Source: Elusimicrobiota bacterium (GTDB lineage Bacteria; Elusimicrobiota; Elusimicrobia; UBA1565). From it: DNA of 64,000 nucleotides. The notes under the pieces were generated by a model that searched no databases, had not been told where the DNA came from, and saw only the letters and a list, made by a program, of their open reading frames with translations. Made by a program: the position numbers and the translations under genes. The first letter of the stretch is position 1, and each line of letters begins with the position of its first letter. The stretch spans positions 8,255-72,254 of the forward strand of contig JACRDO010000016.1 in NCBI GenBank assembly GCA_016212885.1, written 5' to 3'. Shown here one piece after another: positions 22,523 through 64,000 of the stretch.

Positions 22523-23262
22523 GGCGTCCCTCCCGCCGGCGGCGCCGCAGGGGCCGCGCCTTGGGCGGGCGCCTTGACGCCCTCCCCGGGGCCCGCGCTG
22601 GAGGCGGGGGCCGCGCCGGGAGAGGGCGGAGCGCCGTGCGGCGTGACCGTCTTGACGAAGAAGACCACGCGCCGGTTCTTGGCCTTGCACTCGGGGGTGT
22701 CGTTGGCCGGGCAGACCGGGCGATACTGCCCGTAGCCCATGGCCGCCAGGTACTGCGGCGAGAAGTCCTTATCCTTGATGAGGTACTCCACGACGGTCGT
22801 GGCCCGCGCGGAGGAGAGCTCCCAGTTCGAGCCGAAGTACTCGTCGTTGATCGGGACGTTGTCCGTGTGGCCTTCGACCACGATGTCGAAATTCTTCGAA
22901 AGGTTCTTGATCGTCGGAGCGATCTGATCCAGGATCGAGAGCATCCCGGCTGTGACATCGGCCTTGCCGCTCGCGAAGAAAGCCATGTCCCCCTTCTCCT
23001 GGATGCTGATCTTCATGCCTTCCCGGTCGATCTTCACGTCGATCTCGGCGTGGATGTTCTTCTTCGCCTCCTCGACGTCCTTCACCGCCTGCTGGACGTC
23101 CTTGTTCAAGACGGCCGAAAGGGCGTAGAGGATGACGAAGAAGCAGACCATCTCCGTCATGAGGTCCGCGTAGTTGACGAGCCAGGGCGGGGCCGGGTGG
23201 CCGATCTGGCAGACCTTGGGGTCGCTCTCGTCGATGAAGCCCTTGGGGGCGCGCAGGGGCAT
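22519..23262 (-). CDS. motB: flagellar-type stator protein MotB (OmpA-like peptidoglycan-binding)
   Basis: 247 aa. TM segment with the proton-binding Asp (WLVNYADLMTEMVCFFVILYAL). OmpA_C-like region (EGHTDNVP...NWELSSARA...NRRVVFFV). Confidence 0.8.
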   Translation of the reverse strand: MPLRAPKGFIDESDPKVCQIGHPAPPWLVNYADLMTEMVCFFVILYALSAVLNKDVQQAVKDVEEAKKNIHAEIDVKIDREGMKISIQEKGDMAFFASGKADVTAGMLSILDQIAPTIKNLSKNFDIVVEGHTDNVPINDEYFGSNWELSSARATTVVEYLIKDKDFSPQYLAAMGYGQYRPVCPANDTPECKAKNRRVVFFVKTVTPHGAPPSPGAAPASSAGPGEGVKAPAQGAAPAAPPAGGTP

Positions 23263-23265
23263 GGG

Positions 23266-24078
23266 CTATTTCCTCTCCTCTTCCTGCCCCTTCTTCTCCT
23301 CTTCGTGCCCCTTCACCATGACCCGCTGGGAGGGCTCGAGGTAGGCCTTGAGGTTCGCCTCCACCACGCGAGGGGTCGCTCCGCTCTGGAGCAGGAGCAC
23401 GCCGCGGATGACGATCTCCTTGACGAGCAGCTCCTCCTCCGAGCGCCTGCGGAGCTTGCCGCCCATCGGCAGGAAGATGAGGTAGCCGGACCCGAGCCCG
23501 TAGAATGCGGCGGCCAAGGCCAGCGCCATCCGTTTGGGCACCGCCTGGACGTCGCTGATCGAGTTGAGCATCAGCACCATGCCGAGGACCGTCCCGATGA
23601 TGCCGAAGGCCGGGGCGTAGGTGCCCATGGAGTTGAAGATCTCCATCCCGATCTTGTGGCGCTCCCGGATGAAGCCGATCTCCGTCTCGAGCATGTTGCG
23701 GATGAACTCCTGGTCCGAGCCGTCGATGACGTGCTGGATGCCGCGCTTGAGGAAGTCGTCCTTGATGGCGTTTACGTCGGCCTGCAGGGCCAGGAACCCG
23801 TCGCGCTTGGCCTTGTGCGCGAGCGAGACGAAGGTCGCCACGAGGCCGGAAGTGTCCTCGCCGCTCTGGGTGAGGACCTTCCGCAGGATCCTGCCCAGGC
23901 CCACCACCTGTTTGAGCGGGTAGTTGACCAGCGTGGAGCAGAAGGTGCCGCCCATGACCAGCAGGAGGGCCTCAATGTTCGCGAAGGGCACGAAGCCCGC
24001 CGGTCCCTCTTGATAGAGGATGGCGGCCACCGCCAGGCCGATGAACACCAGGATGCCCATTACGGTGGCTATGTCCAT
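23266..24078 (-). CDS. motA: flagellar-type stator protein MotA (MotA/TolQ/ExbB channel family)
   Basis: 270 aa. Four-TM layout, a cytoplasmic loop KAKRDGFLALQ, and the C-terminal channel region GTYAPAFGIIGTVLGMV...AFYGLGSGYLIFLP. Confidence 0.85.
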   Translation of the reverse strand: MDIATVMGILVFIGLAVAAILYQEGPAGFVPFANIEALLLVMGGTFCSTLVNYPLKQVVGLGRILRKVLTQSGEDTSGLVATFVSLAHKAKRDGFLALQADVNAIKDDFLKRGIQHVIDGSDQEFIRNMLETEIGFIRERHKIGMEIFNSMGTYAPAFGIIGTVLGMVLMLNSISDVQAVPKRMALALAAAFYGLGSGYLIFLPMGGKLRRRSEEELLVKEIVIRGVLLLQSGATPRVVEANLKAYLEPSQRVMVKGHEEEKKGQEEERK

Positions 24079-24106
24079 AATCGTTCCTTATAATGACAAG
24101 TCAGGC

Positions 24107-24331
24107 TCACTCTCTTTTGTAGCCTTCTATGGGATTTCTCACGGGCCTTTCGGCGTTGACCCGCTTGCGGTACTCTATCACCTTTCCCACGACCTCGTCC
24201 ACAGTCTCCTTGACGAGGTAGCGGTTGTTGGTGGCCAGCGAGATGACGGTGTTGGGGCACGCCTCTACCGCCTCGATGAGCTCTGCGTTGATCGTGATCT
24301 CCTGGCCGTTGAGGCGCGTAACCTTGATCAT
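24107..24331 (-). CDS. flbD: flagellar protein FlbD
   Basis: 74 aa. MIKVTRLNGQEITINAELIE...NTVISLATNNRYLVKETVDEV is the FlbD signature. It lies immediately upstream of motA, as in spirochaete/Firmicute-type operons. Confidence 0.8.
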   Translation of the reverse strand: MIKVTRLNGQEITINAELIEAVEACPNTVISLATNNRYLVKETVDEVVGKVIEYRKRVNAERPVRNPIEGYKRE

Positions 24332-26112
24332 GCCTTCTCCTCCGGCCCCACCCTGCGCCCCAGGGCGCTGATGCGGGACTTGAGCCTCTCGATCTCCTCG
24401 GCGCTCCTCTTCTGCTGGAGCTCGTAGGCGGCCCGGAGCTTGTTCCAGTTCTCCCGTTCGGCGCTGAGCGCGGCGAAGCGCCGCTCCTCAGCCGCGGCCT
24501 GTGCCAGGGCCCCGCCTACGGCGCCTTCGAGCTGGCTGAGCCTCTCGCGCAGGGCCGCGGCCGTCTTCTCCTGCTCGGCCCGATCCCGGGCAGCGGCGGC
24601 TTTCCATTCCTCCTCCACCGCGAGGCGCGAGCGCAGCTCTTCATACTCCTGCCGGAGCCGCTCAAGCTCCTGGGCCCGCTTGCGGGCCTCCTCCTCCGCG
24701 GCCCTGCGGGCCTCCTCCAAGCGGCGCAGCTCCTGCCGGCCGCCTTCGATGGACGCGGCGAGGCGCTTTATGAGTTCCTCCTCCAGGCTTGCGCGCACAA
24801 GCCGCATCTGCTCGGCCTGCTCGCGCCGGCAGTCGGCCCGGACAACCTGCGCGGCGGCGAGGAGCCGGCTCTGCAGCTGCTCCTGCGCGCAGGCCTTGAT
24901 GCGCGCCTTCTCGGCTGCGAAGCGCTTCTCGGCGTCCGCCGCCGTCTTGGCGCGGATCTCGGCTTCCCGGTCCTGCCACTTGCGCTGCAGGACGATGAAC
25001 TCGGCCTGGTACTTCTCGTTGATCCTCTGCATCTCATCCTTGGCCTTCTTCGCCTCGTCGGCCTGCGCGCGCAGGGCGGCACTCTGCTTCTCGAGCGCGC
25101 CTCCCACGGCCCGCATCCTCTGCAGGGCTGCGCCCGCGAGCTCCGCCTGGGCGCGCGTCTTCTTCAGCTCGGCCTCGTGCTCGACGTTCAGGCGCCGGAT
25201 TTCCTCCTCGCGCTCGGCCGCCAGGCGGCTCGCGACGCTCATCAGCTCGCCCTGCAGCCTCTCGTTGTCGGCCAGAAGCCGCTCCTCGCGCTCCCGCGAG
25301 CCCGTCCTGAGCGAGTGCAGCTCCCGCTCGAGCCGCTCCTGCGCGGCCCGAAGCCGCTCCTGCGTCATCGCGAGCTCGGCTTTGACCTGGGTGAGCTCCC
25401 GTTCGCGCTCGGCCGATGCGGCCGCCTGCGCTTGAAGCCGGCCGTTGGCCTCGGCGAGCTGCGCGGCGCGCTCCTCGACGGCCTGCTTCTCCAGGAGCGC
25501 CTTGCGATGCTCCAGGTCGATCCCCTTGAGGCTTTCAGCCAAGGCCTTGGCCTGGCGGCTCTCGTCTTCCTTGGCGCGGATGAGCCGCTGCCAGTGGGCC
25601 TTCTCCTCGAGCCAGCGCCGCTCGATGTCCTGCAGGCGCAGGGAGAACTGCGCCTCGACCTCCCGGTCCCTCGCGTCGCGGATCTGCAGCTTCTGCTGGA
25701 GGGTCCCAAGCAGGGTCTCGCGCTCCTGGACTAAGCGCTCCTCGAGCTCCCGGACGCGGGCTTCGAGCTTGAGCTTCGTCTCCTCCATCTCCGCCTCGCG
25801 CCGCTCCCGGCGCAGCTTGTCCTGCACATCCTTGATGGAGAGCTCGACGCGGCCGGCGATTTCGGCCTCCTCCTTGGCCTTCAGGCTTGCGAGTAGGACC
25901 TTCTCCCGCTCCTCCATCAGGCGCTTCTCGAGCAGGGCGATCTTCCTTTGCTGGTCTAAAGTCGGCGCCGCGGAGCCCGGCGCGGGCGGCGCGCTTGGAA
26001 GCGCCGTCCTCTCCGGCGCTTGCGGTTCTCCGCTCGCCGGAGAGGGCCTAACCAGGGTGTACGCGCCCGGAGGCAATGGAGGACTAGGATTGCGCCTGGA
26101 TTCCTCAGCCAT
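24328..26112 (-). CDS. 594-aa coiled-coil protein with Pro-rich N-terminus, unknown function
   Basis: After about 55 Pro/Ala-rich residues it is almost continuous E/R/A/L/Q heptad-like sequence. A 4-nt overlap joins it to flbD. It sits where fliH/fliJ lie in flagellar operons. Confidence 0.7.
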   Translation of the reverse strand: MAEESRRNPSPPLPPGAYTLVRPSPASGEPQAPERTALPSAPPAPGSAAPTLDQQRKIALLEKRLMEEREKVLLASLKAKEEAEIAGRVELSIKDVQDKLRRERREAEMEETKLKLEARVRELEERLVQERETLLGTLQQKLQIRDARDREVEAQFSLRLQDIERRWLEEKAHWQRLIRAKEDESRQAKALAESLKGIDLEHRKALLEKQAVEERAAQLAEANGRLQAQAAASAERERELTQVKAELAMTQERLRAAQERLERELHSLRTGSREREERLLADNERLQGELMSVASRLAAEREEEIRRLNVEHEAELKKTRAQAELAGAALQRMRAVGGALEKQSAALRAQADEAKKAKDEMQRINEKYQAEFIVLQRKWQDREAEIRAKTAADAEKRFAAEKARIKACAQEQLQSRLLAAAQVVRADCRREQAEQMRLVRASLEEELIKRLAASIEGGRQELRRLEEARRAAEEEARKRAQELERLRQEYEELRSRLAVEEEWKAAAARDRAEQEKTAAALRERLSQLEGAVGGALAQAAAEERRFAALSAERENWNKLRAAYELQQKRSAEEIERLKSRISALGRRVGPEEKA

Positions 26113-26137
26113 GGTGTCTCCTCATGATCGAACCTTC

Positions 26138-28123
26138 CTAGGTCGCGGGACTCTCCTTCATTTGCGCCTTATAGCTGTCCAGCCAAGACCTCAGGCTCGG
26201 GTCCGGATTGTAGGAAAGGGCCTTCTCATAGTACATCAGGGCCTCGGGGATGCGGCCCATCTGGAAAAGCTCGGACCCGAGGTATTGGCAGGCCTGCCAG
26301 AGGTCCGGATCGTGCTCGATGGCCTGGCGGAAGCACCGGACCGCCTCGTCGAGGTTGCCGGCCTCGTGCTGCTCGAGGCCCGCGTCGAAGCAGCGGCGGG
26401 CCTCGGCGGCATCGATCCGCGCCGTCTCCTCGGACTTGCTCGGCGCAGCCGGCTCGGCCGCAGATTCCTCCTTGCGGCCCGCCGGACGGCGGGACGACGT
26501 CGCAAGGACGTCTTGGAAGCCCTCGTCCTCAACCTTCGGCCGCACCGCGACCTTGCCGTCCTTCTCCATGGCCTTGATCTTGTCCAGGATCTTCGTGCGC
26601 TCGTCCTCGGCTTGCGCCGGCGTGACGCCCTGGGAGTACTCCATGGACTCCTTGAGCAGAGAACCGGCGCCCTCCGACATGTTGGCGAAGAACTTGCTGG
26701 CCACGTCCGGCGGCGCTCCCATCAGCGCGCGGGCCATATCGTCCGGCTGGAGCTCCCGGATGATGGTCTGCATGTCGCGGTCCGGGAAGTTCGCGATATC
26801 CTCGAAGAGCAGGACCCTCTTGCGGACGCGCTCGTAGACGGCGGGTTTCTCGTTCTTCAGGTATTCCAGGATGTTCGCCCGCGTCGGCGTATCGGCTTCT
26901 TCCAGCATCTGCGTCAGGCGCTCTATGCCGCCGACCAAGAAATTAACGCTCTCCTTGATGTCGGAATCGATGGCCGCCACCTGCTCGCGCGTGCACTGGC
27001 GGACCATCAAGGCCTCCATCGCCACCTTGGCCTGCATCCCGACCGGCAAGGCCATGAGAACCTGCCGGGCGTACTCGGGCCGGAGATAGCTCAGAACGAC
27101 CGCGATGAGCCACGGCTCCTCGCGGCGAAGCAGGAACAAAATGACCAGGCGCTTGAGGTTCGTCTCGTTGATGTAGGAGAACCATTGCGACATATCTTCC
27201 TCCTCGGAAGCCGGCGGCTTCTGGCCGAACATGACATCCAGCTTCCCCTCCCCCGGCCCTCCCGCTCCTCCCGCTCCTCCCGCGCCGCCTTTGCCTTCCC
27301 CCTCCGGAGGCTCGATGTTCGACTCCACGTTGATCTGGGCGGCGGGCTTCTGGGCGATGGCCTCCACGTACCTGCGCATGAAGCCCGCGAACGGGAAGAA
27401 AAGGAATAGGAGCAGGAGAAGCAGGAGGGCCGCGTAGAGCAGGGGCAGGTAGACTTTGGGCTCCTTGAGGTCGTCCATCCAGTTCTTGTCCGCGGCCGCG
27501 GAGGACTGATGGTACTTCATCTTCTTGAAGGCGACGTCGTCGGGCACGAGCTTGGCGGCGCCGCCGGCGTCCTTGTACTTGGCCATGGCCTCGACGATGA
27601 AATCCCGAACGTCCTTGATCTTTTTGTCGTCCACCCGGCTGTCGTGGAAGACCGTCACCTTGAGCTTCCTGAACACCAGGTCCTGGGCGTAGTACTCCTC
27701 CTGCTCGGACTTCGTCTGCGACGCGGACTGCCCCACAGCCGCCTCGGGCCTGGGCTTGGCGGTGATGTTGGTGATGTTCTTGGGAGTCGGGACCCCCGGC
27801 AGGGCCCATTCTCTCCCCATCCCCTGCCCCTTCTCGCCCTTCTCTTTGTACTTCTCGGCGATGCCGGCGCCTTCCTTGGCGTTTTCGCGGCGCTGGGCTT
27901 TGACCTCGATCTCCACGTCGGCGAAGACCGTTCCCTTGTCCTTGCCGAGCATGGGGTCGAGGATGTCCTTCTGGATTCGCGCCTCCGCGTCCTTGATGAT
28001 GTTCTCGCGCCACTCGATGAGGGTCAGCTTGGGGGTCTCCAGGACATCCAGGGATGCGCCGCGGCGCGCCGGAGCGGCAAGGGCGAGCGCGGCCAGCGCG
28101 GATATAACAAGTCTTTTTGTCAT
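26138..28123 (-). CDS. mini-FliF / FliG(middle+C-terminal) / TPR fusion protein (rotor-like)
   Basis: 661 aa.
- Signal/TM1.
- A periplasmic region of about 200 aa with ring-building-like beta strands (GTVFADVEIEV, FRKLKVTVFHD).
- TM2 (aa 224-248).
- A Gly-rich linker.
- FliG_M-like REEPWLIAVVLSYLRPEYARQVLMALP.
- FliG_C-like VLLFEDIANFPDRDMQTIIREL...FFANMSEGAGSLLKESME...ILDKIKAMEKDGKV.
- C-terminal TPRs (LDEAVRCFRQAIEHDPD, ALMYYEKALSYNPD). Confidence 0.75.
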   Translation of the reverse strand: MTKRLVISALAALALAAPARRGASLDVLETPKLTLIEWRENIIKDAEARIQKDILDPMLGKDKGTVFADVEIEVKAQRRENAKEGAGIAEKYKEKGEKGQGMGREWALPGVPTPKNITNITAKPRPEAAVGQSASQTKSEQEEYYAQDLVFRKLKVTVFHDSRVDDKKIKDVRDFIVEAMAKYKDAGGAAKLVPDDVAFKKMKYHQSSAAADKNWMDDLKEPKVYLPLLYAALLLLLLLFLFFPFAGFMRRYVEAIAQKPAAQINVESNIEPPEGEGKGGAGGAGGAGGPGEGKLDVMFGQKPPASEEEDMSQWFSYINETNLKRLVILFLLRREEPWLIAVVLSYLRPEYARQVLMALPVGMQAKVAMEALMVRQCTREQVAAIDSDIKESVNFLVGGIERLTQMLEEADTPTRANILEYLKNEKPAVYERVRKRVLLFEDIANFPDRDMQTIIRELQPDDMARALMGAPPDVASKFFANMSEGAGSLLKESMEYSQGVTPAQAEDERTKILDKIKAMEKDGKVAVRPKVEDEGFQDVLATSSRRPAGRKEESAAEPAAPSKSEETARIDAAEARRCFDAGLEQHEAGNLDEAVRCFRQAIEHDPDLWQACQYLGSELFQMGRIPEALMYYEKALSYNPDPSLRSWLDSYKAQMKESPAT

Positions 28124-28497: not shown

Positions 28498-30084
28498 CTA
28501 GAGCCGCTTGAGGAACTCGGCGACGACCTTGTCGGTCGGGTCGATCTCCAGGACACGCTTCCAGACGGCCTTGGCCTTGGCCTTCTCCTCCATCATGAAG
28601 AAGGCCGAGCCCATGATCTCCAAGGCCGTGATGTTGTTCGGCTCCAGATCGAGGACGTCCTGGGTCCGGCGGATGGCGAGGTCGTACTTGCCGTCGTAGA
28701 TGGCCTGGCGGGCGTCGTAGAGCTTCTGGTCCACAAAGGTGAACTGCTCGGGGCCCTCGACGCGGCGCGTCATCTCGCTCACGCCGGCCTCCTTCTCCAC
28801 CAGGTTCAAGAGCCCCAGGACATTCTCCTCTTTGGAATTCTTGTTGTAGGCGTAGCGCAGGGCGTTGACCGAGCCGCGCAGGTCCCGGCCATCCACGTAG
28901 GATATGACGCCCTTGCGCACGTAGGTCTGGAACTCCTCCCCGCCCAGGGCCTGGGGGACGCGGCTGACGATGATCTGGAGCCGGCTGACCATCGCCTTGA
29001 CCTGCTTGTTGTTCGGGGAGGCGTCGAGGGCCTGGTTGAGGCGCAGCGCCGCGAGCTGGAAGTCCCCCTCCTTGAAGGCTTCATAGCCCTGCTCGATGAG
29101 CAGCTTCACCTGGCCGGCCGAGCGGTCCTCGCGCGAGCGGCCGAAGCGGTACCCCACCGAGACGCGCATGCTGGCCGGGTTATCGCTGATCCCGAGCACG
29201 TGGATCCCCTCCGCGATGTCGAGCTGGAGGCGCTGGAAGCGGAAGCCGATGCCGAAATCCGTCTCCTGTATCTCCGGCGCCGCCAGGACTCCGAACCGGA
29301 AGGCGAACCACCGCGCGACCCAATACTCGCCGCCGAAGCGCCAGTTGATCTCGGCTGCCTGGGATTTCGCGATATCCATGCCCAGCAGCAGGCGCTCCTT
29401 GAAGAGGCGCAGGCTGTTGCCGATCTTTATGACGACCGGGTACTTGTCGTCCGTGTCGCCGCTCGTCATGCTGAACACGTTCTGCATCCCGACCGCAAGC
29501 CGGTAGTAGGGGCCTATGATCCGCATGACCGCGACGTCCAGGGCGTTGGTGCTGTCCGTGGAGGCGTCGAGCTGGCGGGTGACCCGCTTGAGCGAGATGC
29601 CGAACGCCGTGGTCTCCGTCGCCTCCTTGCCCCAGGAGAGGATATGGGCGCTCTGCTGGTCGCTGAATGAGTTATTCAGCGATTTGTTGAACTCGTCGAC
29701 CTTCTCGAAGCCCTTGGATGTGAGCATCGTCATTCCATATGCGAAGGTGCCTGCCATGGCCGTCGGGTGGGCGTAACCCAAGCAGTTCAGTGTGGTCTGC
29801 TCCCACAGCATCGCCGACATAAACGAGGCTTCCTTGCGCTGAAGGTAGGCTAAGCCCGCAGGGTTCCAGTACGCGGCCGTCGCGTCGTCGGCGATGGCGT
29901 AGAAGGCCCCGCCCATGCCGAGGGCTCGGGCCCCGACTCCATATTGGAGGAACTGGCCCGGCTGGCCGCCCGACTCGCCCTGGGCGAAGCGCGGGAGCGC
30001 CATTATGAAAACAAAAAGCCCGCAAGCGGCGGCGCGCGCCGCCCCCATGGGCTTGCCTGCGACTGCGTATCTATCGGCCTTCAT
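28498..30084 (-). CDS. PorV/PorQ-like outer-membrane beta-barrel protein fused to C-terminal TPR repeats
   Basis: 528 aa. Signal peptide (…GLFVFIMALPRFAQG). The hallmark GARALGMGGAFYAIADDATAAYWNPAGLAYL is that of the PorV/PorQ/UPF0164-type barrels, followed by alternating beta-strand sequence. The last 200 aa or so are TPR (FQLAALRLNQALDASPNN, YDLAIRRTQDVLDLEPNN, AVWKRVLEIDPTD). The start could instead be the Met at 30048. Confidence 0.75.
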   Translation of the reverse strand: MKADRYAVAGKPMGAARAAACGLFVFIMALPRFAQGESGGQPGQFLQYGVGARALGMGGAFYAIADDATAAYWNPAGLAYLQRKEASFMSAMLWEQTTLNCLGYAHPTAMAGTFAYGMTMLTSKGFEKVDEFNKSLNNSFSDQQSAHILSWGKEATETTAFGISLKRVTRQLDASTDSTNALDVAVMRIIGPYYRLAVGMQNVFSMTSGDTDDKYPVVIKIGNSLRLFKERLLLGMDIAKSQAAEINWRFGGEYWVARWFAFRFGVLAAPEIQETDFGIGFRFQRLQLDIAEGIHVLGISDNPASMRVSVGYRFGRSREDRSAGQVKLLIEQGYEAFKEGDFQLAALRLNQALDASPNNKQVKAMVSRLQIIVSRVPQALGGEEFQTYVRKGVISYVDGRDLRGSVNALRYAYNKNSKEENVLGLLNLVEKEAGVSEMTRRVEGPEQFTFVDQKLYDARQAIYDGKYDLAIRRTQDVLDLEPNNITALEIMGSAFFMMEEKAKAKAVWKRVLEIDPTDKVVAEFLKRL

Positions 30085-30246
30085 GTTCGGCAGCCTGACC
30101 TCCCCGCCGCGGCGGGAATCTTGGCTTTGCGCCCCCGGCTTGCGCCGGGTTTGCCGTTATCGCCCGATGAACGGAACGCTCTCGGCGCGCGTCATCACAG
30201 CCCCGGTCCAGCGCGCCGCATCCGACATCGGGATCCTGCTATTCCA

Positions 30247-30275
30247 ATTATAACAGGCGCATCTTGACTTGTCAA
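30247..30275 (-). promoter_or_regulatory. perfect-consensus sigma70 promoter upstream of the PorV-like gene
   Basis: The minus strand reads TTGACA (30270-30275), exactly 17 nt, then TATAAT (30247-30252). This predicts a 5' UTR of about 155 nt before the ATG at 30084. Confidence 0.6.
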
Positions 30276-30298: not shown

Positions 30299-30362
30299 CC
30301 CGCCTCAGCTTCTGCCTCATGTTTCCAAAAGACCCGCGATTCGCTGCGCTCATCGCGGGGGG
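30299..30362 (-). repeat. chimeric repeat: B-type hairpin joined to A-type tail
   Basis: The minus strand reads CCCGCGAT-loop-ATCGCGGG, then TCTTTTGGAAACATGAGGCAGAAGCTGAGGCGG. The hairpin is identical to repeat B. The tail matches repeat A with 2 mismatches. Confidence 0.8.
30323..30359 (-). terminator. rho-independent-type terminator of the giant gene
   Basis: Stem 30333-30340 with 30352-30359, starting 3 nt after the TAG at 30363-30365, followed on the minus strand by TCTTTTGG. Confidence 0.6.
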
Positions 30363-33300
30363 CTAATGTATAACCCCGATCTTCCTGATCGCGGTCTTGG
30401 AGCCGGCCTTGATGCGCGCGATGTAGCCGCCCTTCGACACCAGGCGGCCCATCCCGTTGCGGCCGTCCCACGGGACTTCGTTCTTGCCGACCCTGCCGCC
30501 AGGCGTCCCCTTAGGGCATGATATCGAGCGGACCACGTAGCCGAGCAGGTCGTAGATCGTGATGGTCACGTCGGAGTCCTCGCCGAGGACGTAGACGATC
30601 TTGGTCCCGCCGCTGCGTGAATCGAAGGGGTTGGGGTAGTTCGACACCTGGGTGATGCCCGGTTCCGGCAACGTCATCACCGAGATCGACTCAGTTTCAG
30701 CGGACCACGAGGAAGCGACGCCCGCGTAGTTGAACGCCCGCACGCGGTAGCTGAGCAACTGGCCCGACTGGCGCGGCTGCTCGGCCGGGTTGCTTGCCGG
30801 GTTGCCGACGTGGTAGGCGTTGTTGGCCACCCCGCCGGTCTTCACGGCCGTGATCGCGCCGAGGGAATGCCAGACCGGGTCGGTGCCGCTCAGCTCCTGG
30901 ATCTCGTAGAGCATCACGTTGGATTCGTCGTCGCGCGAGGCGTTCCAGGTCACGACGAAGCTCGCGCCGGAGGCCTGCCCCGGCGGCACCAGCGACCGCA
31001 CCGCGGCCGGAGAGGTGGGCGGCGTGGTGTCGATCCGGTAGATGATGAGGGGCCGGCCGGACTCCGACGGGATGTAGCCTGTCGGCGCGCTGACGGGGCC
31101 CGTAAAGGCGCGCACCGAGACGAGGGCCATGCCGTCCGAGACGAGCTCTCCGGCCAGGTGCTGCTGCGGCAGTGTGCCCAAGCACCCGCGGCCGGTGGCG
31201 CCCGGGCACCCGATCTGGCCCGGCAGGACCTGGAACTCCGTGTTGCTCACGCGCAGCGCGCCCACGATCTCCGAGCCGATGACGAGCTTGCCCTGGTTGA
31301 AGAAAATCGAGGTATCCTCGACCTTGATCGAAGCGTCGCTCGGCCCGAAGGGCTGCGCCAGGCGGGTGATCTTCGGCACCGGCAGGGCCAGGCCGGTCAG
31401 GGTCCCCGAGGTCACCGAGCCGACGTTCCTCCAGCCGAAGGTGAAGGACTCGTACTTCTCGAAGCTCTCCCCCACCGCGATCTGATAGCCCGTTATGCCC
31501 TGCGTGGAGGAGGGGATCGGCCACGAAAGCCCGAGGCTCGTGCTGTTCGAGTTCCAAGCGGACATCGCCAGGCCCTGGTCCGAGATCGGCATGGCTTTGC
31601 CGTCCTTGTCAACGATGAAGTACACCGGGTTGCCCTTGCCGTCGTCGACCACCTTGTCCGGGATGTTGTCGTTATTGATGTCCAAATCCAGCAGGCCGTC
31701 GCCGTCCACGTCCACCGAGGGCTTGTCCGAGCCGATGAGGCTGATGAACTGCCGGCGCCCGGTGTTCAGGAAGTCGAAGTTGTCCGGCGAGCCGTCATTG
31801 TTGATGTCCACGAGCGGCTCATTCACCGCGGGCTGGCCCGGCGCCGCGGCCAAGGCGGAGGCGCCCGAGGACTTCCACGGCTTGCCGTCCTTGCCGATCC
31901 ACTTCAACGAGTCGCAGACCGGGCGGCCGGTTTCCGTGGAAATCTTGACGCGGCCGGCTCCATCGCGCTTGACGATGCAGGGGTAGCCGAAGCACGGCGA
32001 GCCGGAGCCCTTGCAGGGATGGGTTCCGTCTTCGCCGACGTCCGCGATGGTGATGGTCGGCAGGATCGAGGAGAGCGGGATGATCGCCGTCGAGATGCGC
32101 ACCAGGCTCGATCGGGCCGGGAACTGCTTCTCGTTGGATGAATGGGAGGCCGCGGTCAGCTCGGAGGAGTTGGGCCCGAACATGTCCTCGAAGCGCTCGA
32201 TCGAGAAGCCGATCTGGTCCCCGATCGTGGCGCGGCCCGCCAGGTCCACCGTCGAGACGTCGCAGGCGAAGAAGACGTTGACCGGCGTCGTCGTCACCAT
32301 GAGGAAGGGGACGCTGGAGACGCTCAGGTCCACGAGGGCGGTCCCGCCGCTGAACTGCCCAGAACCGCCCGGGAAGCCGAAGTGCGTCAGGGCGCCGATC
32401 AGCTTGTCGCTGTTGGGCGTGAAGGCGCTGTCCCCGTTGTCAAGCCAGACGCTCAAAGATCGGGCGTCGCCCTGCCCGACGGCCGTGACCGGATACCTCT
32501 CCTGGACCGTGCCCAATTGGGTCAGCTTGAGCTGGGCGATGCGCACGAAGTCCGAGTTGACGCTCATCGTCACCTGCCCCAGCGCCACGTTGGTCTGGCC
32601 GCCCATCGCAGCGGAGGGCGCGAGGTTGCGCGACTCGAACCTCAGCGTCAGCGGGGTGATGTGGACCTTCGAGCCCCTGAACGGGAACTCGCCGGTCATA
32701 GTCCCCCTGGCCTGGAGCTTCGAGACGTTCAGGCGGATGCCGGGGGAAACGTCCTTGGGCGCGAGGACCCCGACCCAGGACTTGTCGATGATATCGACGG
32801 AGAGCTCGTCGTTCTTGACGGCCGTGGCGCCGACGTCGTAAGTCAGGAAGAAGACGCCGGCCGTCGGCGAGATCGTCTGCTGGACCGAGAGCTCGACGAC
32901 CAGCTGGAGGTCCTGGTCGTTGAGCTGGTTGAAGACGTCCACCTTGCGCACGCCCGCGCCGGCCGCGTGGGCGAGCGTGGGCGTGGGCCCGCCGCCCAGG
33001 ACGTCGCCGCGCGATAAGATCGCCAGGGTCGGGTAGAGCGCGCCGCCGATCTGCGTCGTGCCGTAGCCGCCGCCGAAGGTCATCAGCTCGGTGTTCCCCA
33101 CGTAGATGCGGCCCTGGCCGTTTACGGGGAATCCCAGCGTGGAAGCGACGACCAGTGTGAAGGGCGCCGTCTGGTTGGAGGAGACGGCGCCGTAGGGGGG
33201 CAGGGTGGAGCCGGAGATGACCAGGGTGTTCGCCTCCGAGACGTTGAGGTCGTTCTCGTCTAAGACGTCGTTCTGGTTGATATCCTTCCAGAGGCGCACG

Positions 33301-36300
33301 AAGCTTACGTCCGTGTTGCGCCCGAAGAGCTTGTCCTTGTCCTGGCTGCCGCCGCCGCGGGAGATGCGCAGGTTCTGCCAGGACGCGAGCCCGACGTCGG
33401 TCGCCATGTTGAACCTGAGGAACGTCACGTTCGATTCCGCCTGCCCGACCTGGCTGATGTTGTTGCCGAAGATCCAGTCGTAGACCCCGAGCGTGACCCA
33501 GGAGGGAACCTCCTGGATGAGGACCTTGGGGGTCGTCTCGAAGGGCGCGGGGTCCAGCAGAACCCGGTGCGGCACTTCGATCTCGACGTAGGAGGTGTCG
33601 TTGACCGACAGCCCCTCGAGTGTCCCGACCCCGGCGAACTGGTTGAAGCTGAAGGTGATGAAGTAGCTCTTCGGCGTCGTGCTGACGACGATGGGCTGGC
33701 GGAACTGCACGCTGACCGTGCCCGTCGAGAAGGTCTCGTTGCCGAAGGAGAGCAGATGGAGGTAGGCGCCGTGGCTGTCCGTGGCGGTGTCGGTGGAGGT
33801 GAATTGGCCGTCGTTGTCCGCGTCCTCCCACAAGCGCACGACCGTCACGTCGGTGTCCAGCGTCTCCTTGGGGACGTGGTTGAAGCGTAGCTTCGACCAG
33901 CGCACGGTGTTGCGGTCCGTCTTGGCCGTGATCTTCGCGAGCGAGACATCCGAAGCGTTCTGCATGGCCGTGTTGGGGGCGAAGCGGGAGAAGGTCAGCG
34001 AGAGCGTGTTGATCGTAGGCACGATCGGGAAGGCCGGGCTGAAGGGGCTGTTCACGAGGAAGATCTTGTGCCCCGCGCCCGGGGGCCCGAGCTGGAAGTC
34101 CGTCTCCAGAGGCTTGCAGCGCCCGACGGCCTCGTTGCGCTGGTTCACGGGCAGGTCCTTGTGCGTGAAGCGCGCGGCCTGGTCGATGTCGACCGAGATA
34201 AAGTAGGTCTGGGTGGAGGCCGGCACCAGGGTGTAGGCCGCGTTGATCTTCGAGTCCGTGATGTCGAAGATGACCACGCCGTTGACGATATTCCCCTGTG
34301 CGAGGACGCGGTCTTCCCCGTTCACGCCGGTCAAATTGTTGCGATGGAAGACGGGCGCCTCCGGCGGCTCCACGGACTTCCAGAGCTTGGCTATGGAGGT
34401 GTCGCTGTCGCGCACGTTCAAGCCCGGCGGGATCTCGAACTGCAGGCGCATGCGGTTCCACTGCACCTGGAAGCCGCCGGCCCAGCCCTGGAGCTTGACG
34501 ACCGCGTTGTTGTTGGCGCCCTGCTCCAGGCTCGGAGCCAGGACAGCTCCGGCGCCGTGCGCAGCGGCCGAGGTGTCCAGCAGGCCGCGGTGGACCCCGA
34601 TGAGCGCCGACACCCACGTTCCGGAGCCCGCGGGGTACTCCACCTGGCCCAGGGCGTCGTAGGAGACGAGCTCGTTGTCAATGGTCATGTAGGTCGTGGC
34701 CCCGCCGGGCGCAAGCCCGGTGGAGGAGGAGATCAGCCAGTAGGCGTCCGGCTGGCCGGGGTCCGGCGGGACCGCGGCCGGGGAGCTCAAGGTCGGCGCT
34801 TCGAAGGTGCCCTTGGAGGAGGAGAACATGGGCGTGGTCTTCAAGTAGAGGATCTGGGCCGAGGGGATCATCTCGCGCAGCTTGCTCGTAAACGGCAGGG
34901 GCGAGCCCCTGTCGTATTCGTTCGGGTTGGAGAAGGCGTTCGCCGCCGGATCGTCGACCTGCGGGCTGGGCCGCGGGAACGCGTCGGCCTTCAGCACCGC
35001 GCCCAGGGTGCGCGGGGCCTGCGTGCCCGGATCGTTCGTCTGGGCCTCCGGGGAGAGGTGGTAGGCGATGAAGTACCGCTGGGAAGCCTGCGCCTTCGAC
35101 AGGGTCCTGATCGTCTCGGGCGTGAAGAGGATCACTTTCGCCTGCAGGGGAGTGCCGGCGTTCCCGAACGTCCCCGTGCCGATCAGGATGTCGCCGGGCA
35201 TGGAGCCCGACGGCAGCTGGAAGACGCCGTCGCCGTTTGAGTCCGCCCAGGCGGAGACGAGGTCCACGTCCGACTGGTTCCTGCCGGCCGCGGCCGAGCT
35301 GCCGGTCGCCGTGACGACCACGAAGCGCCAGAGCGAGTCGCCGATATCGGCCTGCAACAAAAACGAGAAGACGGCGCCGGTGGACCTCTGCTGGAAATAG
35401 GGGCCGATCTGCGGGTCATCGACGGTGTTCGTCGCGATGACCAGCAGCTTGTCCGCGTATTCGGACACGTTGCCGACCAGCGAGCGCGTCTTGCCGGCCG
35501 GCGGCAGGCCGATGTTGAGGGTGTCCATCTGCTTGGGCTCCTTGATGATGAAGTAGTGCGTGTTCGGGATGATGAGCCCCAGGTTCGCCTCTTCGCTGAC
35601 CGTGGCCAGCGGTGAGACGTCGAAGGTGACGAAGAAGTTGCGCGACCCTCCCGTGATCGACTGCCCGCCGCCCAGGCCGATGATCGGGATGCGCGCGGGC
35701 CCCGAGATCGGGGTCCCGGTCGAGAAGCTCAGCTGGGTTGTGCCCTCCATGGCCCGGGTGCAGTTGCGCCAGACGTTGGCGGAGAAGTCGACGTCCGGGC
35801 AGTTCATGATCTCCTTCTGGTCCTCGTCGGTCTGGCCGTCGTTTAAGACGAGGCGCTGGGGGGTCGGCGGGAAGGGGTCGTCGCTCGGGAAGAAGTCCGA
35901 GAGCCTTGTCACGTAGACGTCGATCGGCGAGGGGGTCGTCGAGCTGATCTCGACCTTCAGGGTGCCGACCGGGAACTTGTGGACGATGCCGGAGAGCGGC
36001 GAGACGATCTGGTCGGTTGTGTTGCCGGCCAGGTCGGGGATCGCGTCCAGCAGTCCGTTGCTGTTCTGGTCCGGCCAGACCTTCTGGTCCGACCAGACCT
36101 TGATGTCGTCGACGTCCATGGCTTTGTTGGTCAGCTTGATGAACCCGCCCAGGGCCCTGGAATGGATCCACCTATCGAGCTTCAAGCCCGACCAGACCGC
36201 TGAGCCGTTGGATTTTATGGTCAGCTTCGAGACCGGGGCGTTCTTGTCGTTCTGCGTGACGGAGGTGCGCACCGAGGGCGCTCTTCCCGCGCCTTCCGCG

Positions 36301-39300
36301 TCCACGGCCTCGACGTACGCGACGTCGGGCGTCGCGTGAACCGACACGTTCGCCGACACGTACGGCATGAAGGGCAGGACGTCGCCGTTGCCCGCCAGCG
36401 GGATGACGTCGGCGGGCCCGCTGATCTGCATCCCGTGGGTCTTGTCCCGCGTTGCGTCGGAGGCGAAGTCGAAGACGACGAAGTAGGTGATCGTGGAGGG
36501 CGAGACGGTGCGCTGGGCCGTGTTGCGGGCCACGGCGTCCTGATAGGCCGGGGCGTCGCTCTTCGTCGGGTCCAGGATGCAGAGGCTCAGGACCGCGGCC
36601 CTCTGGCTGAACGCGGTCTTGTCCGCGGGCTTGGCGCCGGGCGGGTCGTTGACGCAGAGGCTCTCCTCGGGCCTGCGCCAGGCCGTGGGGGTGATCTCCG
36701 TGTCGATGGAGACCTCGAAGATCCCGTTGCCGCGGGAGGGATCCCCGTCGGCGCCGGAGTCCACGAAAAGGCGGATGTGCTTGACGTCCTGGTCTAAGCC
36801 CGTGCCGTTGTGCGTCAGGCGGATGCGGTCGATGGTGCCGTTGTAGGCCTCTGTCCAGAGCTTCAGCTTCATCATGCCCACCGAGCCGGCGCCCTGGTTG
36901 ACGTACTCATAGGTGGAGAGCGGCAGGCGGGTGGTCGTATCGATGGAGGGGGCCCACCAGGCGGAGATGCTCTCCCCGAGGATGTTGATGCGGGCGGCCT
37001 CGCGCTCCACCGGAGAGGTGGCGGTCTTGATCGCGAAGTTGTTGCCCGCGACGCCGACCTGGCTCGCGGTCGTGAGCATGACGAAGAACGGCCCCGAAAT
37101 TTCCAGGCCGAGGTCAGAGGGGAGCTCCACCTCGGCGTAGCCCGTGGGCTTCAGGCGCAGCGCGAGGAAGAAGTTCCTGGGGGCCACGGTCACGATCGTG
37201 CGGGTCGCGTCGGCCGCTTCAAGCGGGACCTGGCCGCGGGTCTTGTCCCCGAAGTACCAATAGCCGTTGTCGTAGACCCCGGTCGCGATCCTCACGTCGC
37301 CGGCGGCGCCGCCTGTATACCGGAAATTGCCGTCGTCGTCCGCATCGGCGTAGAGCGCGATCTCCTCGACGTGCTCGGCTGCGAGCCTGCCGGTTTTCCT
37401 GACCTGCAGGCCGGAGAGCTGGCCGCTCAGGAAATTGGCGGTGGACGGGGCGACGGAGAGCGTCAGGCGCAGCATCTGGACAGGGTCTGGCGAAGCGGGG
37501 GTCATCCCGTCGCCCTGCCGGAGGACGGGGCGCATCTGCCCGAGGCGGGACTTCGCCTCCTTGACGGTCCCGTCCTCGTTCTTTTCCGGCGCGAGGTCCG
37601 TCGGGAAGAAGACCACGCCCGCTGTGAAGACGTTGTCGTCGGAGCGCTGGTCCGCCTTGATCGGCGGGCACTCGGGATCCGGTCCCGGCACGTCGCAGTT
37701 GAAGGCCCGGCCGAAGTCCTTGGTTTTGCCCCAGATCTGCGTCTGCGCCTGGGCGGTCGCGGAGACGACCAGATCCTCGACGAGGAAGTCGGTCACCTGC
37801 AGGCCGGTGAAGACGCCGGGGGTCGGGTCCGCCGCGCCCTGGAAGACGTGAGCGTTCTGGAGGGTCGCGCCCGCGGTGAGGTCCAGCAGGGTCACCTGGG
37901 AGCCCGAGGTCCCGAAGAGGACGTTGCCCGCGAAATACTGCTTGTTGATCGGGTGGCCCGCGGCGATGTTGCCGAACGTGTCGCGCAGGGCCACGCCGAG
38001 CGTCCGTCCGCCCACGGTCCTGGCCAGCACGCCCGGCGCGCCCGTGTGCAGGGGGTTGTACTGGGTGAACGGATGGTGGAAAGTGATGTAGTCCGCCCGG
38101 TTGGGCGTGATGAAGTTGTCCTGCATGACGATCGGCATAATGAAGCCGTCCTGGCCGCGCGTCACCAAGACTGAAAGGGTGATGGTGCCGACCACCGTGT
38201 CCCAGACGTAGAAGCGGGCGCCCGTCTGGTTGATGTCGATGTTGACCGGGAACGCGGATTGGCCCGGGCCAATGCGCTGCCAGTCGCTGGTCTCCCCCAT
38301 GATGGCCTTGCTCGGCGTCCGCCCGGCGCGCGTAGTCGTGGAGTTCAAGGACCTCACCTGCAGGGTGTGGTACGCCCAGCTCGAGGCCGAGATGTTGCCG
38401 AACTGGTCGTAGAGGTCGATCTGGATGAACGGGTCGATGGGCAGCTGGGTGGCGGTGCTCAGCTGAACGGTCGTGCCGGCGATCAGGTAGCGCTTGGGGC
38501 TGGTGAACTGCGCGGTGAGCGGCGGGCCCGGGTTCACGGTGTAGGTCCCGGCGGCGACCGTCCAGAAGCGGTTCTGGACCGTGTTCACCCTCAACTCCCA
38601 CGGCGTGTTCGTGCTCGGCGTGACCCTCGTGTCGATCAGGTAGAAGCTCGTGGCAGCCAACCCGATCTCCAGCCGGGCCGTGCCGGTGGAGGCGATGAAG
38701 CTTCCGGGGTCCGGGCTCGAGTACTGGGTGTCGCCGATCGAGTTGGACCGGATGGTGAACTCGATGTAGGGCTTGCTGCCCCCTCCGTCCCCCCCACCCA
38801 ACTTGACCGGCGACGGGTTGCCGAATTTATCCTCCACCTCGAAGACGATCATCTCGCTGGTGGCCCCGGCGAAGAGGGTCGGGTGGGCGAGCGGCGGGAC
38901 CGCGATACGGCTGACCAAGTCCGGGAGCACGTTCACGAACTGCGCCGAGGAGAGCAGCACCCCGGCCGGGTCCGAGACCCCGACGACCGGCCGGCTCGAC
39001 TCCTCCGGCGGATAGGAGGAGCTCGCCGTGGTGTCAAGGTAGTAGAAGGTCGTCTCGAACTTGAGGGCCGGGATCGTGACCGAAGATATGGGCGCCTCGA
39101 ACGCGGGCAGGGCCCCGGCGGAGATGATGCTGGAGGCCGAGAAGGAGAACGAATCATCCACGGTCGAGGGGCGGCGCGCGGCCGTGGACAGCGCCACCGT
39201 GATCGGCGCCGTCGCCACCACCGGGTTGTTGAAGATGTCCTGGACCTGGACCTGGAAGGAGCGCCGGCTCTCGCCGTCCACGTCGTAGATCTGGCCCGCG

Positions 39301-42300
39301 ACCATCCGGTTGACCGGGTTGCCGAACCCGAGAGTCTTCGGGTCCCGCGGCCGGATGGCCATCTTGAAGGTCACGGAAGACACGTCCATGGCCAACGGAA
39401 CCATCTGCAGGGTCCATCTCCCGGGCCGCCCGCCGTTGCCGAGGTTCTGCTCCGGGCTCGCCCCGGCGTAGGAGGACATGGAGTCGCGGTAGCGGAACCG
39501 GATCTGGGTCAGCGTTTCCTGGATGGTGACCCGGTCGATGTATTTATAAGGCTGGTTCGGCTGGGCGAAGCCGTAGTCCCCGCTCATCGTGTTCGGCATC
39601 CCCGGGGCGAAGCCGGCGCGGGAGCGCACGGCCACCTCGTCGGAGGGCAGGGTCAGCATGATCTCCGTGCTCAGCCAGTCGGTCGGATTGCCGAAGTCGT
39701 CGAGGCGCCCCACCGTGAACTCCCCGCCGCTCAGGCCGTCGGCCCCAGCCAGGGCCGCGTCGGCTGTGGAGACGAAGACCAGATGCTTGGGGTAGCCGCC
39801 CGTGGTCAGCAGGGCGCCGGAGAGGTTGCGCTGCTCGCCGAGGAACGGCCCGAGGTCCGCGGGCGCCGTCATGGTGCCGATCCAGATGCGCGCGTAATCG
39901 CCGGCTTTGCTGGAGACGATATAGCCCCATTTGATGTTGACGTTGTCGGGCTCGCCGTTGTTGCCGATGCGCCCCTTCATGTCCGTATAGGTGTAAGTGG
40001 CGCCGGACGCGACCCAGCCGGCCCCCTCGTTGTAGACGAGGGAGCCTGAGGAGCCGTACACCCCTACGATCTGGATGTAGACCGGAGCGCTCGATATCAG
40101 GGGGTTGTTGTAGACGTCCGAGAGCTGGCCCGTGAACTCGGACATGCCCGGCGAGAGCTGGGACCCCGCCCGGACGCTGACGATCTGGCTGGTCGGCCCG
40201 GGCAGGACCGTCACGGAGCCGGCGTCGCTGGGGGCCACGAAAATCGAGGGCCGCTGCGAGTAGCCGATCACCTCGCTGGTCACAATCGGGTTGTCGTCCA
40301 GCGCGGCCCTGATCCAGCGCGAGCCCGCCTTCTTCAGCGTCAGCCCCCTTTCGTTGATGAACGTCTTCACCCCGCCGTCCGAGACATAGAAGGGCGCGAG
40401 CGTCGGGCTGAAGGAGGGGGTCTGGGGAGTCTGGAAGTACTCGGCCGAGAGCGTCAGCGTGCTCAGGCAGAGGTTGGGCCCAGTCGAGAGCAGGTTGCTG
40501 AAGATGTCGTGGGCGATGATTGAGAAATGGATCATCTGGCCGGCCGTGGCCGAGGAGGGGACCCCGGAGAAATGCAGGTGGTGGGCCGGGCCCGGGTTGA
40601 CTGGGAAGAGGGCCGAGGCCGCGGAGGATATGTCGAGGGCCGAGTCCGGCGTGGTCGAGGCGACCACGCTGTAGGTCGAGACCGCGGCCACCGGGATGAT
40701 GGGGAAGGACCAGCTTCCGAGCTGGAGCGCGGCGGGCGGGGGCTGGGCGGCCCTTGTGTCCGAGGGCAGGCTCAGGGCCACCTTCGGCATGAGGGAGGGC
40801 GGGTTCGTGTCCCAGTTGACGCTCGTAGATGAGATCTCCGTCGCCAGGTTGAAGAAATCGTCGATGAGATTCACCGTGACCTGGAAAGCGCTCTGCGGCA
40901 TGGTCATCGTGACCGCGTTCGGCGCGCCCGTCTTGCCGGGCGTGTCCCCCGGCTCGAGGCTCCGGCAGTATGGCGAGGCGCCGCCGCCGCACTTGCCGGG
41001 CGCCCCCTTCTCCCCGGGCAGGAGCACCTGCAGGCGAGCGGCCGAGGAGGCGAAGACCTTGAACCGCTCCGAGCGGGCGGCCGGGTTCGCCTGGCTCTCA
41101 GCGGCGGACCGGCAGACCTGGTTCGGCAGGAGGTTCACCGTGCAGACCTTGTCGACGTCCTGGGCGCGCGGATAGACCGCGACGAGCGCGGAGGTGGTCT
41201 TGCTCACCAGGGCCAGCTGGACCTGGCGCGAGCCGGAGGCCGTCATGGGGACCGAGGAGGGCTCCACGTCGTAGGCGTCCGAAGTCCAAAGGTTGAAGGA
41301 CGGCAGGTAGTCGGCTCCGACCTTCGGGGCGGGATTGACGATGTTGTTGTATTGATCCACCAGGTTCACCGTCGCGTTGAACGGCGCGCCCGCTGTCTGG
41401 GTGGAGACGGCCCCGACCTTCCCCCCGTCCGGATAGGTTCCAAGCCCGCCGATGCTGATCTGCCCCGGCATCACGAGCTGCAGCCCGTAGGGCTCGCCGG
41501 CGGAGACGGTGAAGGTGGAGGAATACGGCGAATCCTGCAGGCCGGAGCCGCCGTAGTCCTCGGCCAGGAGCTGGTGCCAGGTCGCAGCCGCCAGGAGCGC
41601 GGCCGGCAGGGCCGTGGGGTCCGTCTTCCCGTAAGCCGTGTTGATTGGCGCAGTCGGGCAGGAGACGATGAACGGGAAGCCGGCCGGGGTCTTGATCCGG
41701 ATGTCGGCGGCGCGGTTGGCCACCACGTTGTAGAACCTGTCCACGATGCCGACCCGGACGTACACCGGGTCCCCGGCCTTGTTGGCCGTGTTCGGGACCC
41801 CGGACTTGCCGGTCTCGGAGCCCGGGTCGAAGTCCTCGCCCGGCAGGACCACGACCAGGTTCTTCGGCAGGCCCGCGGTCACGTTCACCACCGTGCTCGT
41901 GTCGGAGGCGAGGCGGTCGCCCCAGGGCTGCGGGTCGTAGAGCATCTCGGCCCTCAGCTGGTTCGGCATGGACTTCTTGAACACGACGTCCACGAGCCCC
42001 ACCCCGGTGACGGTGAGGGTGGAGGGCAGAATGATGGCGTGCGGGTCCGTCGGCACGATGCGGATCTGCTGGCTCGCCCCGAGGGTGAGGTTCCAGAAGG
42101 CGTCCGTGATCTCCACGGTGATGGTCATCGTGGACCCAGCTGGCTGGCCGATGACCGTGCCGCCGCGGCCCCCGTAGGGCTGGGGCGGGATGACGGTCGA
42201 GCCGGGCACGGCGTACTGGTTCGGGACGCGCACGCGCAGGCGCATGGGATTGCTCGGGGTCAGGGTGAACGTGCTCGACACGATCCCGGCCAGCAGGGGA

Positions 42301-63974: not shown

Positions 63975-64000
63975 GTCCAGGCCGGGGACCCAGGCGCCGT

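Follow-up and report, generated by a model that had tools for sequence, protein, structure and literature searches.

How does a bacterium export a surface protein over 12,000 residues long, and what holds it at the outer membrane? The question is raised by a 64,000-nucleotide stretch of an Elusimicrobiota metagenome-assembled genome (MAG), referred to here as the window (G000:C85:8255-72254; the assembly comprises 3.83 Mb in 174 contigs and is 91.6% complete). On its minus strand a single open reading frame with its stop codon at 30363-30365 extends past the end of the window, and in the assembly this frame spans 12,038 amino acids and runs to the contig end, its N-terminus missing. The syntenic ortholog in a second genome (G144) has a frame of 12,044 amino acids that opens with a typical Sec signal peptide (its start reads ...SRRPVLLAAGLLLLSALLSAPVRSA); identity between the two loci is 62% in the tail of the giant protein, 72% in the outer-membrane barrel encoded next to it and 83% in MotA farther downstream. 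We analysed the tail, numbered over the last 580 residues such that window bases 32106-3n to 32108-3n encode residue n (Table 1). We propose, from sequence, that it serves a giant adhesin-like fibre, exported by Sec, both as its base near the membrane and as its sorting tail. With moderate confidence we further suggest that, after Sec, the protein is exported by an SprA-like translocon of the kind that a type IX secretion system (T9SS) has, and that it is anchored by an uncleaved type A C-terminal sorting domain (CTD) that a cognate PorV-like barrel retains. The original prediction for this region, made from the letters of the sequence, had seen an ordered, non-repetitive set of modules here. 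All five were recovered almost exactly where it had placed them, and phmmer found no recurrence of them in the 10,631 residues upstream (none at E<=10).

The last of these modules had been read as a CTD of about 97 residues, and its translation carries the motifs YPNPFD, IYDLLGY, WDGRNG, KGGY and KIGVIH where they had been noted. By searching the last 120 residues with the two models by which the prediction had proposed to judge the domain, we obtained 32.2 bits (E 7.6e-8; cut-off 23) for TIGR04183 and 27.8 bits (cut-off 27) for FlgD_ig (PF13860), and both models thus recognised it. TIGR04183 also passed (27.5 bits) when the last 660 residues were searched; Por_Secre_tail (PF18962) gave 21.8 bits and stayed under its cut-off of 27. 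Of the NCBIfam models, the tail best matches that for PorU, at its CTD end (E 1.7e-8), and a profile of the tail searched against solved structures matches the PorU CTD of 6za2 together with FlgD immunoglobulin-like (Ig) domains. The type B model TIGR04131 gave no match to the tail at E<=1. In the AlphaFold2 (AF2) model of the last 580 residues (28 sequences; mean predicted local distance difference test score, pLDDT, 83.8; predicted template-modelling score, pTM, 0.69) the domain is a beta-sandwich of seven predicted strands (pLDDT 88-97) that ends at the stop codon. In each of the 150 relatives listed with a match that runs to the end, it likewise occupies the very C-terminus. By model score and predicted fold the terminal domain is a genuine member of the type A family. 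The original prediction had taken this CTD type to be the T9SS cargo tag of Bacteroidota, widespread in the Fibrobacterota-Chlorobiota-Bacteroidota (FCB) group and candidate phyla; the domain type stands, but reviews assign the T9SS to the FCB group (PMC11205867), and the host, one of the Elusimicrobiota, falls outside it. Elsewhere in the genome a CTD-like Ig domain is found five times in tandem, with a C-terminal copy too (G000:C142:10821-14372, plus strand), and two metagenomic representatives (P0019 and P0021) have 14-15 tandem CTD-like copies plus a C-terminal one.

We also compared the tail with its relatives. Searching the last 580 residues against 1.84 billion representatives with phmmer gave 63 proteins at E<=1e-30, in which the match covers 480-540 amino acids and always lies at the C-terminus of a large protein (up to 6,506 amino acids in that library). 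A scan of species-representative genomes gave 200 loci that keep the whole tail of ~520 residues in one piece, and the best 80 of these come almost all from Elusimicrobiota MAGs, with one labelled Solibacteraceae and a few merely "bacterium". In a sample of 151 genomes taken across the phylum, 84 have a tail match at E<=1e-10. Here the full tail terminates open frames of up to 19,358 amino acids, and shorter versions occur that consist of a fibronectin type III (FN3) domain and the CTD, or of the CTD by itself. Judged from these matches, the ~520-residue tail is a conserved, phylum-wide ending of Elusimicrobiota giant proteins, usable as a metagenome marker for giant adhesins of this phylum.

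The gene directly following the giant gene codes for a PorV/PorQ-family barrel with a C-terminal tetratricopeptide repeat (TPR) domain. Its product scores 93.3 bits with NF033709 (cut-off 90) and 32.9 bits with the PorV equivalog model NF033710, under the cut-off of 250; all 25 matches of NF033710 over the genome are sub-threshold. Using hidden Markov models built in this analysis, we counted 40 PorV-like barrels in the genome and, as the original prediction had proposed to do, the CTD-terminal proteins, which number 24. For 17 of the 24 CTD genes a barrel gene lies within ~300 bp downstream on the same strand. In the 14 complete pairs the distances between CTDs correlate with those between the adjacent barrels (r 0.44, Mantel p ~0.0006), which fits pairs that stay together and is not in itself proof of contact. 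Among related tail loci with enough flanking sequence, the PorV-TPR barrel gene directly follows the tail in 42 of 70, and on a tree of 71 tails this linkage needs four changes, versus 21 for shuffled labels, having been lost in one derived clade of 24. We therefore regard the adjacent PorV-TPR barrel as a candidate, and the most likely, cognate partner of the CTD on grounds of homology and gene pairing. A type B CTD with an SprF-like partner was considered and rejected, since TIGR04131 does not match the tail and the SprF/PorP model TIGR03519, which matched three other loci, does not match the neighbouring barrel. In one relative without a barrel neighbour an IS200-like transposase gene directly follows the tail (L081:11614-12435, minus strand), which fits a rearrangement at that junction.

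The genome was further searched for other T9SS components. A single gene (G000:C124:26123-32218, minus strand) codes for an SprA-like protein of 2,031 amino acids (TIGR04189, 173.5 bits, E 4.1e-51). Homologues of 1,650-2,050 amino acids occur in 141 of the 151 sampled genomes, including small genomes (1.4-1.7 Mb) without the tail, and co-occurrence of the two was therefore set aside as not discriminating. The genes next to the SprA-like gene on its contig include nothing obviously T9SS-related, their translations having been judged by eye with no family-model scan. The PorU, PorZ or other sortase-like partners expected by the original prediction did not come to light: in the eight proteins that NF033707 matched, the match was confined to model positions 950-1095, which are the CTD end of PorU, the catalytic body of ~900 residues was not found, and neither PorZ nor any other sortase-like partner was found in the genome. 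The models for GldM and GldN (TIGR03517 and TIGR03523) gave no match and that for GldL (TIGR03513) a single match of 16.9 bits, but no control genome was matched by this set either, so that absence of these parts is unproven. A full-text literature search returned no paper linking the T9SS or PorV to Elusimicrobia. The dedicated outer-membrane route of export and attachment that had been deduced from the tail is thus likely, but not in the form of the described T9SS with ligation to anionic lipopolysaccharide (A-LPS), as neither a sortase nor GldL, GldM or GldN was found.

From homology and by analogy we infer the following route. Sec would carry the giant protein over the inner membrane, the signal peptide being seen in the ortholog. 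The CTD would be recognised by a PorV/PorQ-family barrel, most likely the one encoded downstream, as homology and pairing suggest, and the outer membrane would be crossed via the one SprA-like translocon, which almost all genomes of the phylum possess. As a sortase of the PorU/PorZ type could not be detected, the CTD is probably neither cleaved nor ligated to lipopolysaccharide, and would remain bound to the barrel, which would then be the anchor. The analogy is with Porphyromonas, where PorU and PorZ are anchored via PorV and PorQ and where, in porU mutants, uncleaved cargo stays on PorV (PMC5562754); type B CTD proteins likewise bind PorP/SprF (PMC11205867).

Several points weigh against this reading. 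The SprA-like protein scores below the equivalog cut-off of 200 and has no match in Pfam. The energising parts GldL, GldM and GldN were not detected and, were they truly absent, the energy source of export would be unexplained. No barrel gene stands beside 28 of the 70 tail genes with enough flank, so adjacency is not required, and co-duplication alone could yield the Mantel correlation. The CTD-like Ig fold is also found internally or in tandem in other proteins (on contigs C142 and C155), so the fold does not serve solely as a signal. The giant gene and the barrel gene would be separate transcription units, since a hairpin resembling a terminator lies between them, followed by a promoter and a riboswitch. 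Finally, both the tail family and the system of the phylum are known from sequences and models.

The region between the two genes also bears on a different view of the tail. The putative hairpin, which directly follows the stop codon of the giant gene, was not called by a consensus terminator scan, having only four U. The promoter after it matches the sigma-70 consensus perfectly, and the cyclic di-GMP (c-di-GMP) riboswitch has its end right in front of the barrel gene's start codon. As read from their positions, promoter and riboswitch control not the giant gene but a cassette of PorV-TPR barrel, FliG-like protein and MotAB. We treat the block from the FliG-like gene to MotB (22519..28123) as context and claim no role for it in tail function. 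One could however suppose that a FliG-like/MotAB machine, non-flagellar and gated by c-di-GMP, is coupled to the outer membrane through the CTD and the PorV-TPR barrel. In Elusimicrobiota this machine would replace PorLM/GldLM and either power the export of fibres of 12,000-19,000 residues or move or tension them on the surface. The order tail, PorV-TPR barrel, FliG-like protein, 594-residue protein, MotA, MotB is kept in ~40 related loci and in the G144 ortholog. It recurs in a paralogous cassette with its own PorV-TPR barrel, behind a CTD protein of 7,052 amino acids (G000:C86:46049-52632, plus strand). A flagellar origin of the neighbouring FliG/MotAB genes was rejected, as FlhA (FHIPEP) is absent from the genome while four control genomes were matched. 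A motor of this kind would also suit the failure to find GldL, GldM and GldN, and the TPR arm of the barrel, predicted to be periplasmic, could reach a partner. A third FliG-like/MotA/MotB group lies on contig C149. Where adjacency to the tail is lost, seven of eight genomes still possess the barrel and FliG-like cassette elsewhere, which indicates that tail and cassette tend to share a genome and need not adjoin. On the other hand, adjacency is lost in the whole clade of 24 tails, and there no CTD gene precedes the cassette. The giant gene is, moreover, its own transcription unit, the 16 other CTD-barrel pairs of the genome have no motor genes beside them, and a physical link from TPR arm to FliG-like protein is a supposition. 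We consider the coupling to a motor rather doubtful.

Another view is that the organism has an ordinary, complete T9SS, with CTD cleavage and ligation to lipopolysaccharide, in which PorK, PorL, PorM, PorN, PorU and PorZ are too diverged for models trained on Bacteroidota or are encoded in the 8% of the genome that the assembly lacks. The lack of matches in control genomes to the GldL, GldM and GldN models, the incompleteness of the MAG and the sub-threshold score of the SprA-like protein, a sign of strong divergence, would all be accommodated. A barrel for each cargo, as for 17 of the 24 CTD genes, is however unlike Bacteroidota, where one PorV serves all type A cargo (PMC5562754). The PorU model, for its part, was able to find eight CTD ends, but never the catalytic body, and the literature searched reports no T9SS in Elusimicrobia. 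We thus hold this view to be unlikely.

Calcium-loop clusters are reminiscent of giant adhesins of the repeats-in-toxin (RTX) type. The terminal domain might be a mere structural FlgD-Ig cap, and export might follow a type I (RTX-like) route or, with only the neighbouring barrel involved, one of the two-partner or autotransporter kind. We hold this to be very improbable: the calcium loops of the tail, the internal and tandem copies of the fold in other proteins (14-15 in some) and the low Por_Secre_tail score would agree with it, but TIGR04183 is passed, an SprA-like translocon is present, and 24 proteins with no other relationship have the domain strictly at their end, 17 with an adjoining PorV-family barrel. 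Type I export as of an RTX adhesin was rejected, since the ortholog has a Sec signal peptide at its N-terminus and substrates of type I secretion have none.

Returning to the tail as base and anchor of an exported fibre, we inspected the modules between the CTD and the repeat array. Its two FN3 domains, the barrel nested in one of them and the conserved calcium loops would together form a rigid stem that raises a variable repeat array of thousands of residues above the membrane. The domain next to the CTD (FN3-B) had been described as a clean FN3, and the profile of the tail searched against PDB sequences indeed matches FN3 domains of titin and contactin (E 1.8e-12 to 1e-5). When the whole tail was compared with the PDB by Foldseek, FN3 tandems dominated (E 6e-11), and the search was uninformative on the other modules. 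The preceding domain (FN3-A) had been predicted to be an FN3 split by an insert of 80 residues. Its N-terminal part gave a partial Pfam fn3 match (23.1 bits, cut-off 25; E 8.9e-5; profile positions 6-56 of 84), and its strands are modelled at pLDDT 90 or above. Beyond an insert of ~78 residues, AF2 places three strands (327-335, 342-345 and 351-358; pLDDT ~90). Removing the insert in silico did not raise the fn3 score here, and in one relative it gave a match to positions 9-77 (E 0.015). An FN3 interrupted by an insert is the best reading, of which the N-terminal part and the insert were thus found as predicted, but closure of the same sandwich by residues 325-366 comes from the AF2 model, because removal of the insert restored no full fn3 match.

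The insert itself is, as modelled, an autonomous beta-barrel of the phage tail-fibre kind. It carries the motif GSEI...RGxxGSxxxxHxxGExVS, with L, G, E, R and H invariant in an alignment of 63 sequences, and when modelled alone on these it forms a compact barrel (pLDDT 93.7, pTM 0.83). Among the predicted viral structures of BFVD it has 33 matches at E<=1e-3 (best E 1.1e-5, TM-score 0.78, root-mean-square deviation ~2 A), several of which are annotated as phage tail fibres. The Pfam family End_beta_barrel was matched at E 0.036 in one relative. The N-terminal barrels of phage tail fibres and tailspikes (e.g. Escherichia phage ECML-117) resemble the insert in fold (TM-score 0.7-0.78) at 20-26% identity and share the motif RGxxG(S/T)...H..G with it. 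Here, in contrast, the barrel is nested in an FN3 loop of a cellular surface protein, and the likeness is one between predicted models, PDB matches to phage tail and baseplate proteins being weak (E at or above 0.017, the best not significant). The barrel also contains a loop CPGATGRGC with two Cys (window 31182-31208, minus strand; tail residues 300-308). Both Cys are present in 14 of 81 aligned tails, and the loop position is missing altogether in 38; a disulfide-stapled loop is possible in this subset of the family. A second, diverged barrel-like insert was found by motif search ~1,100 residues upstream of the tail (window ~34400-34700, minus strand, near 34589; sequence TIDNELVSYDALG...HRGLLDTSAAAHGAG). 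It shares the signature RGxxxTxAxxHxxG with the tail barrel, and barrels inserted into loops may thus be repeated where the protein lies near the membrane. Over 10,000 residues of the giant protein (window 30366-60365, minus strand) Pfam found almost nothing, with weak matches to Filamin and Big_13 only, and its repeat families are essentially undescribed.

The dense DxDxDG cluster noted originally is present as three loops in the translation (DINNDGSPD, DVDGDGLLDLD and DINNDNIPD, inside 31536-31811), and its key positions are conserved: of 81 aligned tails, 71-81 retain each of D100, N102, D104, G105, D108, D132, D140, N144, D146 and D150, D134 and D136 of the second loop being variable. Pfam gave a weak FG-GAP-like match only. 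The four Cys of the first module, described as a knot, likewise lie within 31812-32045, but a conserved four-Cys module was rejected. Cys31 and Cys38 sit in an insertion of 16 residues that is missing from 79 of 80 relatives, and Cys43 and Cys64 are replaced by Ala and by Pro or Ala, respectively, so that the four Cys are private to the giant protein studied here.

Table 1. Predicted features of the tail of the giant protein and of the region downstream. Positions are those of the window.
Feature	Position	Strand	Tail residues	Basis or remark
Giant surface-protein gene	30363..63998	-		3' end inside window; 5' end beyond window and contig; at least 12,038 amino acids
Variable beta-hairpin/linker with four lineage-specific Cys	31818..32063	-	15-96	AF2 (pLDDT 57-83)
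Putative DxDxDG-type calcium-binding loop cluster	31581..31817	-	97-175	Conserved acidic positions
FN3-A, N-terminal part (about strands A-E)	31368..31580	-	176-246	Partial Pfam fn3; AF2
Predicted small beta-barrel, phage tail-fibre type, in E-F loop of FN3-A	31134..31367	-	247-324	AF2; BFVD
FN3-A, C-terminal part (about strands F-G)	31008..31133	-	325-366	AF2
FN3-B, uninterrupted	30657..31007	-	367-483	Profile against PDB; Foldseek
CTD, T9SS type A / FlgD-Ig kind	30366..30656	-	484-580	97 amino acids; TIGR04183, FlgD_ig, AF2
Terminator-like GC-rich hairpin (CCCGCGAU...AUCGCGGG) followed by UCUUUUGG	30325..30359	-		Directly after stop codon; read from sequence and folded
Sigma-70 promoter, TTGACA-17 nt-TATAAT with TG extension	30247..30275	-		12/12 matches; 0.1 expected from shuffles
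c-di-GMP-I riboswitch aptamer	30086..30165	-		Rfam RF01051, 60.5 bits (gathering score 35), E 2.4e-9
PorV/PorQ-family outer-membrane barrel with C-terminal TPR domain	28498..30084	-		NF033709, TPR_2, TPR_19; directly downstream of giant gene
FliG-like/TPR protein	26138-28123	-		FliG_M, FliG_C; context gene
594-amino-acid protein of no assigned family	24328-26112	-		Context gene
MotA	23266-24078	-		MotA_ExbB; context gene
MotB	22519-23262	-		MotB_plug and OmpA; context gene

New in this analysis are the anatomy of the whole tail, its conservation across the phylum and the recognition of what the nested barrel is. So are the finding that the Cys "knot" is no module, the signal peptide seen in the ortholog and the separation of tail and cassette in one clade. 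The sorting domain sits on the largest proteins of a phylum other than the FCB group. If export through an SprA-like pore and anchorage by a barrel are correct, the phylum would have a minimal outer-membrane half of the T9SS, with a private PorV-like barrel for each cargo. Binding to a barrel, so far the anchorage of PorU, PorZ and type B cargo, could then be a general mode, and export without PorLM would raise the question of its energy source. Coupling to the neighbouring motor would instead mean an independent invention of motor-driven adhesin handling.

The nearest known system is the type A T9SS of Bacteroidota, whose cargo (TIGR04183; for example RgpB of Porphyromonas gingivalis) has the same terminal seven-strand sandwich of ~90-100 residues with YPNP...GxY...K and a Sec signal peptide at the other end, here seen in the ortholog. 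An SprA/Sov-like protein and PorV-family barrels are also encoded in the genome studied. Unlike that system, the one described here belongs to an elusimicrobiotal genome in which PorU, PorZ, PorL, PorM and PorN are undetected, and it has 40 PorV-like barrels, about one per cargo, where Bacteroidota have one shared shuttle. Because no sortase or motor is detectable and there is about one barrel per cargo, CTD cleavage and A-LPS ligation are unlikely in this genome. Closer in its likely anchorage is the P. gingivalis attachment complex, where in PorU-PorV and PorZ-PorQ a type A CTD protein is held by a barrel, apparently with its CTD kept (Glew et al. 2017, PMC5562754), and it is the CTD end of PorU that best matches the tail among NCBIfam models. 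Here however a giant fibre would be held in place of a secretion-system enzyme, the genes of the pair are neighbours, and the barrel has an extra TPR domain. In Flavobacterium johnsoniae the gene for the giant repetitive adhesin SprB is likewise followed by that of a dedicated outer-membrane barrel, SprF, which is needed for display there. Our system differs in having a CTD of type A and a barrel of the PorV/PorQ and not the PorP/SprF family, and neither a GldLM motor nor genes for gliding came to light. Thus, the system around the tail is neither the described T9SS, having no detected sortase or motor, nor SprB-SprF, from which its CTD type and barrel family set it apart, while its layout and likely anchoring resemble both.

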